Positions 15,475-25,374 of a DNA stretch of 49,550 nucleotides are shown here, piece after piece. Each line of letters opens with the position of its first letter. The first letter of the stretch is position 1. A model generated the notes under the pieces. It had not been told where the DNA came from and searched no databases. It saw only the letters and a list, made by a program, of their open reading frames with translations. Origin of the DNA: a virus (taxonomy: Duplodnaviria > Caudoviricetes); IMG/VR virus record IMGVR_UViG_3300025600_000024, positions 1-49,550 of that record. One strand, 5' to 3'. The position numbers and the translations under genes were made by a program.

Positions 15475-16281
15475 ATGAAACAACCAACACAAGTAGTAAC
15501 CGGCCAGGTAAGATTGACATTTCCGCATTTATTCCAACCCTATGCAAACCAACAGGGGCAAAAGGAAAAGTATTCTGTCACCATGTTGCTTCCTAAAACA
15601 GACGTGGCCACCAAAGCAAAGATGGATTTTGCTATTAATGCCGCAATCGAAGCGGGTATTTCTAAAAGTTGGAGTGGTCAACGCCCTCCAAAGATCAACA
15701 TCTCCGTCCATGATGGCGATGGCGTAAGGCCAAACGGTGAAGCGTTCGGGGCGGAATGCAAAGGGCATTGGGTGTTTACGGCTTCCAGCAACAATGCTCC
15801 GCAGGTGGTTATGTATCCTTCATTGGATCCGATCCTCAATGAATCAGATATTTACTCCGGCATCTATGCCCTTGTATCTGTTAACTTCTTTTCATACAGC
15901 TCTAACGGAAACAAAGGTATTGGTATTGGTCTTAACAACGTGGCAAAGGTTTCTGATGGCGAACCTCTGGGCGGCGGTCGAACAACAGCAGCCAACGATT
16001 TTGCGGATGTTGCGGCACAGGGACAACAGAATTATCAGCAGCAACAGCAAGCTCCACAACAGAATTACCAACAACCTCAACAACAGGCGTATCAGCAGCA
16101 AGCCCCCGCACAGGGACAACAGCCACAACAGAATTATCAGCAAGCGCCGGCACAACAAAATTATCAACAGCAAGACAGCCCAATGCCTGCTCAATTTCAA
16201 ATTGATCCAATTACCGGGCAACCACTTCAGCAGCAAATTGATCCTATCACAGGTCAACCGATGACTGTGTATGGGATATGA
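15475..16281 (+). CDS. DUF2815 family ssDNA-binding protein with Gln-rich tail
   Basis: KYSVTMLLPK, HDGDG, IYSG.YA, GNKGIG.GLNNV.K..DGEPLGG. Confidence 0.9.
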   Translation: MKQPTQVVTGQVRLTFPHLFQPYANQQGQKEKYSVTMLLPKTDVATKAKMDFAINAAIEAGISKSWSGQRPPKINISVHDGDGVRPNGEAFGAECKGHWVFTASSNNAPQVVMYPSLDPILNESDIYSGIYALVSVNFFSYSSNGNKGIGIGLNNVAKVSDGEPLGGGRTTAANDFADVAAQGQQNYQQQQQAPQQNYQQPQQQAYQQQAPAQGQQPQQNYQQAPAQQNYQQQDSPMPAQFQIDPITGQPLQQQIDPITGQPMTVYGI

Positions 16282-16811
16282 GCCAGTCATCAAAAGAAGT
16301 ATGGAAAGATATCCCGGGACACGAGAACAAATATCAAGCAAGTGATCAGGGAAATATAAGGAGCTTAACAAGGCAGATTACCCAAATTGGCCGATGGGGA
16401 AAACCATTTACAAGAACAATAAAAGGGCGTGTTTTACGCCCTGGACGTTATGCCTCATCTGGTCATATTTCAGTAGTATTAGGGCATGGGGCGAATGGAA
16501 GCCCTGTACACCAACTGGTAGCATTAACCTTCATAGGGCCCCGACCTGAAAAAGCAGACACCCGCCACCTAAACGGGATTCCGACTGATAACCGAGTAGA
16601 AAATCTTTGTTATGGTAGTCGAACGGAAAATATACTCGACCATTTCCGGCAAGGAAAAGCATGGAGAAAGCTAGATTATAATCAGATGATGGAAATTAAG
16701 GAGAAATTGAAAGCAGGTAAAACCGGACACGCTTTAGCTGTCGAATATAAAGTTTCTGATGTAGCTATTTCAAACATTAAAGTTGGGAGATATAAATCAT
16801 GCGGCATCTAG
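16278..16811 (+). CDS. NUMOD4 + HNH homing endonuclease
   Basis: EVWKDIPG.E.KYQAS..G.IRS (NUMOD4); VHQLVA..F, RHLNG...DNR.ENL (HNH). Confidence 0.92.
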   Translation: MSQSSKEVWKDIPGHENKYQASDQGNIRSLTRQITQIGRWGKPFTRTIKGRVLRPGRYASSGHISVVLGHGANGSPVHQLVALTFIGPRPEKADTRHLNGIPTDNRVENLCYGSRTENILDHFRQGKAWRKLDYNQMMEIKEKLKAGKTGHALAVEYKVSDVAISNIKVGRYKSCGI

Positions 16812-19256: not shown

Positions 19257-19569
19257 TTGTAGTGATCTTAGTAATTTTGTAAAAGAACGAAACCGAAGAT
19301 ATCAATCAACAGGAAATCCAACAATTGGGCCATTTATAGTGATGACAGATAAACAAATAGAAGAAGCAATTAAAGATTTGCAATCATGGTCCGACGGTCA
19401 CCCACAAAAGACATATCTGGATGATTTCAAAGAAAAATTTCCAAACGCAAGAATAGATGAAAATGGTATTCCTTATTGTTGCCTTAGAAATTTAAGAGGT
19501 AACCTTAAGTGCTTAAATCCTATAGATTGTTTTAATTGTTGGAATCAAATAATGGAGGAAAATAAATGA
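19246..19569 (+). CDS. Hypothetical phage protein, Cys-rich C-terminus
   Basis: HPQKTYLDDFKEKFPNA...C..CWN motif. Confidence 0.7.
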   Translation: MKLDCSDLSNFVKERNRRYQSTGNPTIGPFIVMTDKQIEEAIKDLQSWSDGHPQKTYLDDFKEKFPNARIDENGIPYCCLRNLRGNLKCLNPIDCFNCWNQIMEENK

Positions 19570-19958
19570 GTAGAGAAATAATCTTCCGAGGCATCCGCAT
19601 TGATAATGGTCAGTGGGTTTATGGCTATTATGTGAAAAATAAACTCAGTGGAAAATGTTATATCATCGATGCTCACAAGAACGCAGCCGATCCGGTCAAA
19701 GTTATTCCGGAAACAGTTGGGGAATATACGGGATTGGAAGATAAAAAAGGAGCCCAAATTTTTGAGGGTGATGTATTACAGGATTATGCTAAAAACGGAA
19801 AACCAATATCTCAGGTTGTTATATTTTGGAGTATCGGATTTTGGGATGGGGAACCCTTGGAGGGTTCGATTTATAGATTATGTTATGCAGGATATAAACG
19901 TGCGGAAGTAATTGGCAATATCCACCAGAACCCGGAACTCTTGGAGGCCACAAAATGA
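19566..19958 (+). CDS. YopX family protein (copy 1)
   Basis: MSREIIFRG, TVGEYTGL.DK.G..IFEGD, EVIGNIHQNPELL. Confidence 0.9.
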   Translation: MSREIIFRGIRIDNGQWVYGYYVKNKLSGKCYIIDAHKNAADPVKVIPETVGEYTGLEDKKGAQIFEGDVLQDYAKNGKPISQVVIFWSIGFWDGEPLEGSIYRLCYAGYKRAEVIGNIHQNPELLEATK

Positions 19959-20356
19959 GTAGAGAAATATTATTCCGTGGATTAGCAGGGAGTGTATGGA
20001 GATACGGCGATTATGAAACATATACCTTCAATAAAAAAGTAAGCCAGATCTGTACAAAGAAAAAAGAACATTACACTGTTGATGATACCGTAGGGCAATA
20101 TACTGGACGAAAAGACAAAATCGGAAAAAGGGTATTTGAGGGCGACCTTGTAAAATTTACACATTATGGCGATGTTCATACCGCTAAAATTGTATTTAAC
20201 GAGGGAACCTGTGGCTTTGAAATTTGGTACACGTCGGTTGTTGGAGCCTACGGCGAAAAAGCTACTCATAAAGCAAATTTTTATGATAAAGAGATTGAGG
20301 TTATCGGGAACATCCACCAGAACCCGGAGCTTTTAACCCCGTGGAGGGGTATATGA
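19955..20356 (+). CDS. YopX family protein (copy 2)
   Basis: MSREILFRG, TVGQYTG.KDK.G..VFEGD, EVIGNIHQNPELL. Confidence 0.9.
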   Translation: MSREILFRGLAGSVWRYGDYETYTFNKKVSQICTKKKEHYTVDDTVGQYTGRKDKIGKRVFEGDLVKFTHYGDVHTAKIVFNEGTCGFEIWYTSVVGAYGEKATHKANFYDKEIEVIGNIHQNPELLTPWRGI

Positions 20357-23260: not shown

Positions 23261-23557
23261 ATGCAGGAAAAAGACGTTGAACAATATTTAAGAGACCAAG
23301 TTAAATCAATCGGCGGTAAAGCTTATAAATTTGTTAGTCCCGGCAATAGAGGTGTACCTGACAGAATGGTATGTCTTCCAGGTGGAAGAATTGTTTTTGT
23401 AGAGCTTAAGGCAACGGGTAAAACAACCTCTGATCAGCAGGATCTACAAATTGCTAAATTACAGGAATTAGGTTTTCACGTTATGTGCTTTGATAATAAA
23501 AGCATCATCGATGATTACATAGAGATCTGGAAAGAGGCAGGAAATGATAGAAACTAA
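23261..23557 (+). CDS. VRR-NUC domain nuclease
   Basis: KFVSPG..GVPDR....GG...FVELKA. Confidence 0.92.
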   Translation: MQEKDVEQYLRDQVKSIGGKAYKFVSPGNRGVPDRMVCLPGGRIVFVELKATGKTTSDQQDLQIAKLQELGFHVMCFDNKSIIDDYIEIWKEAGNDRN

Positions 23558-24017
23558 ATGCCATTGGTGTGGCAAAACTATATACAGATATAAAGGTAAA
23601 TTGACAGAACATAATTTTTGCAGTCATGATTGTCAAAATAAATGGCGATCAAAGGAGCATAATCCTGCCGGGTATTTGAAAAATAAAAATTCACCTTTCA
23701 AGTATTTGAACAAAGAGCTTAATAAAACGAAAATGACCAAAGAAGTAAAGACAAAGTTACGTCAAGCAAGATTAGGAACGGGTGAAGGTAAAGGTTATGC
23801 AAAAACCTATGGTAAACACGATCACAGAATAGCGGCTGAAAAAATGTTAGGTCGAGCTTTAAAGCCAGGCGAAGTTGTTCATCATATTGATCGTAAGAAA
23901 AGAAACAACCTACCTGAAAACTTAATGGTTTTTAGTAGCCAATCCGAACATTTTAAATGGCATAAAAAACATGATCACGAGGAGGTGATGTCAAATGTCC
24001 GTGTTCAAACCACATGA
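23544..24017 (+). CDS. Free-standing HNH endonuclease with N-terminal Cys4 zinc finger
   Basis: CHWCG..FCS..C; HR..AE..LGR.L...EVVHHID...NN.PENL. Confidence 0.9.
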   Translation: MIETKCHWCGKTIYRYKGKLTEHNFCSHDCQNKWRSKEHNPAGYLKNKNSPFKYLNKELNKTKMTKEVKTKLRQARLGTGEGKGYAKTYGKHDHRIAAEKMLGRALKPGEVVHHIDRKKRNNLPENLMVFSSQSEHFKWHKKHDHEEVMSNVRVQTT

Positions 24018-25374
24018 TTACCAGCGTTATTGTATCAACCAACTAATTATCAATAAAAATGTAGCCCTGTGGCTTGACATGGGCTGACTGGGCTTAGGCA
24101 AAACCTCCATCACCTTGACAGCTCTTAACGATTTGAAATATAACCGGTTCGCCATTAACAAAACTTTAATCATCGCCCCTAAGAAAGTGGCGCAGGGAAC
24201 CTGGACAAAAGAACAGCAAAAATGGAGTCACCTGAGCATGTTGAGATTACAGATTGTTTTAGGGTCCCAGGCAGCACGATTGAGAGCATTAAATACCCCG
24301 GCAGACATTTACATTATTAACCGGGAAAATGTTCAGTGGCTGGTGGAGCATTATGAAAATGCCTGGCCGTTTGACACCGTCGTGATCGATGAGGCATCCA
24401 GTTTTAAAAATCACCAGGCGAAACGATTTAAAGCTTTGAAAAATATCAGGCCAAAAATTAACCGGCTGTTTGAGTTAACCGGGACGCCAGCACCCAAAGG
24501 TTATATTGATTTATGGGCCCAGGTGTTTCTATTAGATCAGGGTGAACGATTAGGAAAGAATATTACCGCCTATAGAGACCATTATTTTGATCATGAAAGC
24601 TATGGTTTTGGATATAACATCAAAGCCGGAGCCGAAGAGATCATTCGGGATAAGCTGCAGGGATTGTGTATTTCCATGAAATCCGAGGATTATCTGCAGT
24701 TACCGGATGTAATCATTGATGACATCCCGGTGATCCTGGAAGGTAAGGGAAAAACATCTTACAAGGAAATGGAAAAGAAAATGATTTTAGAGGTGGATCT
24801 TGGAACCATCGTGGATGCTACCAGTGCCGCCGTGCTGTCAAATAAGCTTCAGCAATTATGTAATGGGGCAATTTACGACGAGGACCACAATGTTCATGAG
24901 ATCCATGACAGTAAGATTGAGCGGTTCCTTGAGTTAATAGAGGAGCTAAACGGAAAACCGGTGATTGTGTTTTATAGTTTCAAGCATGATCTGGATCGGA
25001 TCAAGAAAGCCCTGGCTAAAAGTAAACTAACCATAAAGACTTTCAAGACCTCCCAGGATGAAGATGACTGGAACGCTGGAAAGATTGATGTTCTGTTGGC
25101 ACATCCGGCTTCCACTGCTTATGGTCTTAATTTACAGGATGGCGGGAATCATATTATCTGGTTCGGCCTGAATTGGTCCCTGGAATTGTACCAGCAGGCA
25201 AACAAACGGCTGCACCGCCAGGGACAACAACAAAAGGTCATTATTCACCGCTTAATTGTCGAAGGTGGCCGTGATGAAGACATCGCCAATGCTTTGGAAG
25301 AAAAGAATGTCACTCAAAAAAGTCTGCTTGAAAGTCTAAAAGCTCGAATAGAAAAAATTAAAGGGGAAAACTGA
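23995..25374 (+). CDS. SNF2/DEAD-like helicase interrupted by an in-frame TGA (24085-24087) inside Walker A; recoded or pseudogene
   Basis: GAGGAGGTG RBS, then MSVFKPHDYQ...LWLDMG*LGLGKT in the same frame as ORF 24115..25374 (IDEAS, LTGTP, GLNLQ, QANKRLHRQGQ). Confidence 0.85.

Follow-up and report, generated by a model that had tools for sequence, protein, structure and literature searches.

The window analysed here is the whole 49,550-nucleotide (nt) stretch of IMG/VR record IMGVR_UViG_3300025600_000024, a single 49.5-kb contig of a temperate tailed phage with an integrase and a tail sheath. Its replication module comprises polA, primase, VRR-NUC and SNF2 helicase genes. The helicase gene is the subject of this study: directly downstream of a free-standing HNH endonuclease gene, its conserved motif I (DMGLGKT) is interrupted by a 9-nt block that opens with a stop codon. 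The features of the locus are the following (aa, amino acids; ORF, open reading frame).

23261..23557, plus strand: VRR-NUC gene, the left neighbour, given as context and outside the cassette; in relatives without the HNH gene it directly abuts the helicase.
23544..24017, plus strand: free-standing HNH_3 endonuclease of 157 aa with a Cys-rich N-terminal part (Pfam HNH_3, E 4e-11, above the cutoff), located between the VRR-NUC and helicase genes and predicted to be the insert's mobile partner.
23980..23989, plus strand: strong Shine-Dalgarno sequence of the helicase (AGGAGGTGAT), inside the 3' end of the HNH gene, as read from the sequence.
23995..24084, plus strand: helicase ORF1, 30 codons ending in D-M-G; take-off is predicted at the final GGC (24082-24084).
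23997..24008, plus strand: 5' strand of a predicted long-range RNA helix (end of the start codon and codons 2-5); ten pairs at 0.89-0.99 and one at 0.51, in the same register as in homologues.
24074..24084, plus strand: 3' partner strand in the same predicted helix, spanning the L-D-M-G codons through the take-off, from predicted folds and a register scan.
24085..24093, plus strand: 9-nt coding gap TGA CTG GGC, comprising the stop, a spacer and the predicted landing codon GGC (24091-24093).
24094..25374, plus strand: helicase ORF2, 426 codons resuming at L-G-K-T, with SNF2 and Helicase_C domains and without lesion.

This arrangement is as described in the first-pass annotation, which had placed the helicase start at ATG 23995, behind a strong ribosome-binding site and within the HNH reading frame (23544-24017). 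The string ATG GGC TGA CTG GGC TTA GGC AAA ACC lies at 24079-24105, and D-M-G-stop-L-G-L-G-K-T at 24076-24105. Removal of the insert does restore the SNF2 motif, as had been claimed: 30 and 426 codons join into a 456-aa product carrying DMGLGKT, which the SNF2/Rad54 structure 1z63 (Sulfolobus) has at the equivalent place. The gene has no other lesion, with no further stop up to 25374. Its downstream part matches SNF2-rel_dom and Helicase_C, and its motif I loop is of the DxMGLGKT type. In the HNH family alignment, the motif H-H-x-D..N-N..N-L and four Cys are invariant, and the His, Asp and Asn columns are present in the window protein. TGA terminates both the HNH and the helicase genes, and the code is therefore standard, which rules out an alternative genetic code.

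The insert is present in contigs of three runs. Those of X1 and X2, either of which may be the source of the window, and of X3 (record 6, 23671-24158) bridge the site without any letter difference in a contig-level comparison, while the listed pieces from run X4 end on either side of it. Because these contigs agree and the interruption of the motif recurs elsewhere, an assembly error is ruled out. The 9-nt insert is missing from the four closest intact relatives (L004-L007), and another relative, L622, carries a different 9-nt gap next to an HNH gene of the same lineage (HNH 80% identical).

Interruptions of this kind recur widely. We collected at least 233 distinct interrupted alleles of related phage SNF2 helicases, this being the number that could be anchored after pooling all loci, and every one of them is interrupted at motif I, at one of five codons (D-M-G-L-G). 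Such recurrence at a single motif places the insert beyond chance. It bears out the expectation of the first-pass annotation that the insert would be found in related phage helicases; its picture of one 9-nt insert holds for the window, where the insert is real, but the element as a whole is a family of lengths at five codons. The lengths (alleles in brackets) are 1 (1), 4 (28), 5 (80), 6 (50), 7 (31), 8 (28), 9 (9) and 10 nt (3), followed by 14, 15 and 17 nt; 60 of the 233 inserts are in frame and 173 out of frame, and the alleles comprise 73 distinct combinations of site and insert string. Most inserts lie after one of three residues (first Gly, Leu, second Gly), with the Met (1) and the Asp (2) as rare take-off sites, and about 223 of the 233 inserts begin with a stop.

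These alleles come from several searches. A pattern for a 9-nt stop-led insert matched three distant helicases with differing inserts, and a motif-blind protein search returned 80 relatives, some with 5-8-nt inserts at the same codon. Two wider pattern scans gave 78 distinct helicase-confirmed alleles, 5 of which were intact motifs in another frame. A scan without the stop requirement revealed the two further sites, after Leu and after the second Gly, and its helicase-confirmed matches were all stop-led except one (TCG); a second-Gly scan led to an estimate of about 430 stored stretches. The last two scans covered 14/64 and 18/64 parts, so that their counts are samples. We excluded 44 non-helicase pattern matches and 5 apparent 10-nt inserts that proved to be intact motifs read in a different frame. 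Of 41 pattern matches in named genomes, 15 were confirmed as helicases, all from Bacillota (for example Blautia, Lacrimispora, Veillonella and Gemella), and the 26 not confirmed were left out. Cultured phages with inserts are Pd_22F and phiPaco (5 nt), Carmen17 (10 nt) and S4-5 (9 nt). Further afield, a distant helicase subfamily (L674-L685; E-M-G-T/C-G-K-T) has the same HNH family and 4-9-nt stop-led inserts, and a much larger SNF2 protein (L207), with 837 aa following the site, is interrupted by 6 nt (GGC TAA GGC) in the same motif.

Codon usage around the inserts follows a pattern. First-Gly take-off codons are GGT or GGC in 77 of 77 alleles (GGT in 71) compared with GGY in 10/35 intact genes, and second-Gly take-offs are GGT or GGC in 86/87 (GGT in 71) compared with 26/35. 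At the Shine-Dalgarno sequence, a GGAGGTGAT-like context is better conserved among insert alleles than among intact genes. After Gly, 106 of the 110 inserts of at least 6 nt end in GGN, and an earlier GGY occurs inside none of 112. Where the take-off is Leu and the insert stop-led, take-off and landing codons are identical in six of seven cases, with the cultured phage S4-5 supplying an eighth Leu case (CTT to CTT). The single free base of 4-nt stop-led inserts is C or T in 27/27. TAA is absent from 4-5-nt inserts (0/103) and present in 41/110 longer ones; in the short class the landing triplet overlaps the stop, and TAA cannot lend a G to it. Close pairs exchange TAA, TAG and TGA yet retain a stop. 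Over the whole collection, landing and take-off codons are identical or wobble-equivalent in 126 of 233 alleles, the window being GGC/GGC. We infer that this codon pattern is what re-pairing of a retained peptidyl-tRNA would produce.

The interrupted helicases otherwise have the appearance of functional genes. Among the 192 interrupted alleles with enough DNA, 190 have a downstream ORF of at least 370 aa. The ratio of nonsynonymous to synonymous substitution rates (dN/dS) has a median of 0.05 (maximum 0.14) over 32 disjoint insert pairs of one site and length, with dS up to about 2.9; for intact pairs the median is 0.03 (n=11). In the 24 codons before the site, pooled dN/dS is 0.095 in insert pairs and 0.093 in intact pairs. 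Thus the frame downstream of the insert is whole and selection on it is not relaxed, in agreement with the first-pass annotation.

Insert alleles share a further property, complementarity between the opening codons of the gene and those immediately preceding the take-off. A blind register scan found the same register relative to the take-off at both Gly sites, though these lie 6 nt apart, and mean pairing in the best register was 0.83 at the first-Gly site (n=75), 0.91 at the second-Gly site (n=90) and at most 0.70 in intact genes. One helix position of the first-Gly alleles is A-U in 37/75 and G-C in 23/75, an exchange that also swaps Ile and Met at codon 2. When helix partners were swapped between alleles, the own partner paired better in 67 of 76 first-Gly alleles. 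Predicted folds contain no local hairpin over the take-off. The first-pass annotation had suggested that AGCCC pairs with either copy of GGGCT; AGCCC is indeed present at 24063-24067, but its pairing with either copy has a probability below 0.01, and the start-region helix is predicted instead. In single alleles, pairing of the leader with the insert may still hold, as judged from predicted folds (GUCA/UGAC at 0.6-0.7 in the window; L351). Two Leu-site alleles, L351 and L375, have a predicted helix of about 20 base pairs over the Shine-Dalgarno sequence and the stop, about 100 nt upstream of the motif; no ATG, GTG or TTG is visible in them, and the start may be AUU.

The inserts are associated with the HNH gene. 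Searching from the HNH side, we found an SNF2 helicase within 450 nt downstream in 144 of 153 family loci with enough DNA, and the 102 distinct anchored HNH-adjacent helicases consist of 80 interrupted ones, 19 that are open with a variant motif and 3 with canonical DMGLGKT. A further 11 rows of this search, excluded for want of an N-terminal anchor, are by eye 9 interrupted and 2 intact. Searching from the helicase side in two samples, we found alleles without HNH interrupted in 5/38 and 1/58 cases and alleles with HNH in 6/7 and 0/1. The anticipated co-occurrence of the insert with the upstream HNH family is thus observed (80/102 interrupted versus 6/96 without HNH). Variant motifs beside the HNH (DCGLGKS, EMGLGKS and others) were considered as an alternative form of immunity, which is not supported as a general rule because such motifs are common without HNH (31/58 in the second sample); the single fitting case is L725, with SMG beside its HNH and DMG in HNH-less alleles 90-96% identical to it. 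Going by a visual check of the ORF that follows, more distant members of the HNH family (L679, L690, L692, L695, L699 and L701) lie in front of other helicase-like P-loop genes, and in Corynebacterium phage StAB (L702) the same HNH family lies upstream of an uninterrupted helicase with G-L-G-M-G-K-T replacing DMGLGKT.

Several observations point to mobility of the cassette. In a tree built from 226 downstream parts, insert alleles are interspersed with intact ones (29 parsimony changes versus 46 if shuffled); the window groups with the intact allele L007 (support 0.76), and L622 with the intact L004 (0.95). The HNH gene is patchy among close relatives, being absent from L004-L007, L037 and phage Wes44. 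Compared with the intact L037, the insert allele L039 is 72% identical before the insert and 100% identical in the 72 nt after it, and the 5' part is the more diverged one in 28 of 31 insert-intact pairs. In close pairs the sequence changes sharply at the insert, which marks the right-hand edge of a divergent tract. Carmen17, sequenced as genomic DNA from a plaque-purified phage, has the HNH and a 10-nt insert, and Wes44 has neither; their identity is 0.73 in VRR-NUC, 0.80 before the insert and mostly 0.91-0.94 after it. Both are siphoviruses, 95% similar, purified on B. thuringiensis DSM-350, in which no lysogeny genes were found (PMC6430321).

Taken together, our best reading is programmed short translational bypassing within a mobile HNH cassette, a miniature analogue of the T4 mobA/gene 60 system. 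We put the probability that the 9-nt stop-led gap is skipped in this manner, giving a 456-aa helicase, at roughly three in four. The ribosome would stall with peptidyl-tRNA-Gly(GCC) on GGC and UGA in the A site; the tRNA would detach, the mRNA would slide by 9 nt and the tRNA would re-pair at the next GGC, so that decoding would restart at UUA and yield an enzyme with DMGLGKT and the junction peptide NVALWLDMGLGK. The helix between the first codons and the codons 5' of the take-off would zip as the strand exits the ribosome and ratchet the ribosome forward, a role as forward driver that we favour slightly, by analogy with T4. On the DNA level, the HNH would nick motif I in any co-infecting phage that has it uninterrupted, and its own gene would be copied in there together with a new 5' end for the helicase and the insert; the insert would break the HNH recognition site. 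The HNH would often be lost later and the insert retained. That the insert protects the HNH target and spreads with the HNH by homing, leaving the protein unchanged, appears fairly likely.

A number of observations weigh against this interpretation or limit it. The alleles are related, and counts and P values therefore overstate independence. Landing codons are imperfect in many alleles: 47/233 share just the first two bases with the take-off (same box), about 55 of 233 are near-cognate (AGC, GAC, AGT, CGC, GTC), and one Met take-off lands on GCG, which barely matches. The sole second-Gly exception to GGT/GGC is L489, with GGA. The pattern scans required a stop or TGG. About 10 alleles have no stop after the take-off (CCA, CTA, TGG, TCG, CGG). 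Regarding the helix, intact genes already pair at about 0.7 in its register, the signal for own partners at the second-Gly site is weak (better in 54/86), the whole fold of the window is weak as well (z -2.1), and the swap test failed for pairing of the leader with the insert or the landing codon (35/75 and 47/90; p 0.73 and 0.75). As for the cassette, the 102 helicases beside an HNH include 22 without an interruption. Because 16 HNHs adjoining inserts served to build the HNH query, seed loci may make up as many as 15 of the 80 interrupted ones, and the 5' part is slightly more diverged in 19/26 intact-intact pairs too (0.83 vs 0.86). Moreover, 94 of the 130 insert alleles that the DNA-pattern searches yielded lack a neighbouring HNH; of the HNH-plus-insert cassette put forward in the first-pass annotation, the association stands, but most pattern-found inserts are now without an adjacent HNH.

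Among alleles lacking a stop, L542, L545, L569, L611, L624, L644 and L658 have CCA or CTA after Gly and include the three longest gaps (14, 15 and 17 nt). L638 has one extra base (CUU-C-GGC) beside its HNH and looks like a +1 shift at CUU-CGG, from which we consider that motif I may also use plain frameshifting.

Other routes to a helicase, or to none, have to be weighed against bypassing. The insert could be removed at the RNA level, either through skipping by RNA polymerase or as a micro-intron that a trans-acting enzyme cuts out with the helix as its guide, after which the normal frame would be read. This would account for the imperfect landing codons and for a conserved helix at a fixed distance from the 5' edge of the insert; it leaves unexplained why some 223 of 233 inserts start with an in-frame stop, and why the junctions follow a tRNA logic, with GGU/GGC, Leu to Leu and TAA avoided just in 4-5-nt inserts. 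The inserts share no common end sequence, and they are too short for self-splicing of the group I or group II type. We regard removal from the RNA as improbable. Readthrough of the UGA in the window, or mixed frameshifts in the family, seems about as improbable. It would give a 459-aa protein with three extra P-loop residues; in its favour are the in-frame insert of the window, the weak termination context UGA-C and the resemblance of L638 to a true +1 shift. With 173 of 233 homologous inserts out of frame, however, readthrough is not the general answer; the readthrough alternative raised in the first-pass annotation falls for the out-of-frame alleles, though not strictly for the in-frame insert of the window. 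Readthrough also leaves the matched GGC unexplained, sits poorly with a motif spacing of 81 nt in 91 of 92 open alleles, and cannot draw on an altered code.

Decay of the gene and re-initiation both fit poorly, because the downstream frames are intact, dN/dS is purifying and the resume codon is rarely a start. A dead gene would arise from an imperfect duplication, TGACTGGGC resembling the upstream TGACATGGGC, or from an endonuclease repair scar at a hot spot in a dispensable helicase, and an HNH cut site would indeed concentrate scars. Scars would not retain a stop while changing its identity, though, nor leave 190/192 frames open with so low a dN/dS between alleles sharing an insert class, and the remaining genes of the window look whole. 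This explanation is largely refuted, and the inactivating duplication that the first-pass annotation offered as its alternative is refuted as a general account. A split enzyme, in which ribosomes stop and re-initiate just downstream and the two pieces associate, is comparably unlikely. Some inserts are Shine-Dalgarno-like (TAAGG, TAGGA), a TTG at 24115 of the window opens a 419-aa ORF, and homing endonucleases in T4-like phages are accompanied by split genes (bioRxiv 10.1101/2022.08.31.505936). Among 94 first-Gly alleles, however, the resume codon is CTT in 34, TTA in 31 and TTG in just 7, and at the second-Gly site it encodes Lys; starts further along would leave out the lysine of G-K-T, although the HNH-first set, which was not selected on G-K-T/S, retains it. 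The least probable account, very remote in our view, is excision of the insert from the DNA, for instance on induction, with the helicase expressed by intact genomes alone. The phage is temperate with an integrase, and short direct repeats flank the insert, but these are just 2-6 nt long; contigs of four runs, which drop rare variants, show no joined form, and purified Carmen17 genomic DNA retains the insert.

To our knowledge, natural bypassing is known from very few systems. Bypassing in T4 needs an elaborate 50-nt signal, and gene 60 features a mini-Shine-Dalgarno sequence 6 nt before the landing, a forward slippage barrier and a nascent-peptide signal. The consulted part of a preprint on the T4 mobA/gene 60 element, a 50-nt translational bypass, calls such elements exclusive to Topo2L and does not mention helicases (bioRxiv 10.1101/2022.08.31.505936). 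In the same portion, the likenesses to our locus are these: a Gly take-off followed by a stop, with a matched or wobble-matched landing; an overlap between the HNH gene and the beginning of the target ORF; an element that ends at the landing codon and carries its own 5' segment; and cassettes from which the endonuclease is often lost while the gap persists, at a site that can shift by one codon (10.1101/2022.08.31.505936). Structure forming 5' of the take-off as mRNA exits the ribosome has been proposed, in the sections consulted, to push the T4 ribosome (bioRxiv 10.1101/2022.08.31.505936; 10.1101/2024.12.09.627546). An analogous long-range helix is predicted here, which covaries at the first-Gly site and is partly present in intact genes.

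There are also differences. As far as the T4-type elements are described in the material consulted, their gap is about 50 nt as opposed to 4-17 nt here (9 nt in the window), their target is the topoisomerase large subunit of myoviruses as opposed to motif I of an SNF2 helicase in phages of Bacillota and Fusobacteriota, MobA has 269-279 aa as opposed to a 157-aa HNH_3 protein, and the target gene is split by MobA with CTE/NTE tails, whereas the helicase is unsplit. Five take-off codons are used here, unlike in T4 mobA/gene 60, and the T4 stem-loop of take-off codon and gap has no counterpart, gaps of 4-9 nt leaving no room for one.

Shorter systems have also been described. The terminase of Streptomyces phage phiHau3 has a 10-nt bypass, a UAA version of which was bypassed in E. 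coli, as mass spectrometry showed, and like our alleles it concerns a phage gene whose frame is broken by short blocks with matching flanks on either side; the text consulted describes a hungry UUA codon as trigger and proposes developmental regulation, with helicase, homing and HNH unmentioned there (Antonov et al., 2023, PMC10732093). Unlike in phiHau3, nearly all our alleles have a stop as the trigger, lengths vary, the target is a helicase, an HNH is linked and the hosts are others. Synthetic 'stop hops', in which 9 nt specify a single amino acid, likewise have matched codons flanking a stop; they occur at a low level in constructs, and no natural in-frame case was known according to the portion of the review consulted (Atkins et al., 2016, PMC5009743). 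The inserts here, by contrast, are natural, conserved and mostly frame-changing. Magnusiomyces mitochondrial byps resemble them in being many mobile inserts bypassed between matching codons and differ, in the description consulted, in their length (27-55 nt), an unassigned sense codon as trigger, mitochondrial ribosomes and the lack of an adjacent HNH (10.1101/2022.08.31.505936). We found no report of helicase inserts of this kind in the literature searched, which left out most subscription papers and preprint supplements. The helicase inserts are real and widespread, and we did not find them described in that literature.

Elsewhere in the window, a second HNH gene (16278-16811), unrelated to the first (23% identical), overlaps the start of the DNA polymerase gene, which is one 663-aa ORF with no gap visible. 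Parts of a diversity-generating retroelement lie at 15-2718, with Avd (1001-1342) and a reverse transcriptase (1660-2718) after a tail-like gene, and two adjacent paralogues at 19566-20356 belong to the same PHROG families (98 and 8684).

If the bypassing interpretation is true, hundreds of 4-17-nt gaps in one motif would make the minimal rules of ribosome sliding readable from evolution, with natural variation available in take-off codon, stop, length and landing match. Carmen17 and Wes44 form an insert-plus/insert-minus pair that grows on a laboratory host, and S4-5, Pd_22F and phiPaco are further cultured carriers. Helicases of this family that are annotated as truncated or split are probably whole. 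A broader view, to which we give even odds, is that short stop-hopping would be a general and evolvable way in which free-standing homing endonucleases mark their targets. Ordinary bacterial ribosomes would then skip 4-17 nt with useful efficiency, needing no more than weak pairing of the P-site codon, a stop and a helix formed by the start region of the gene itself. The SNF2 motif-I family would be a natural library of more than 70 minimal signals at five adjacent codons, and the helix over the start codon could tie hop efficiency to the initiation rate, acting as a switch of phage replication.

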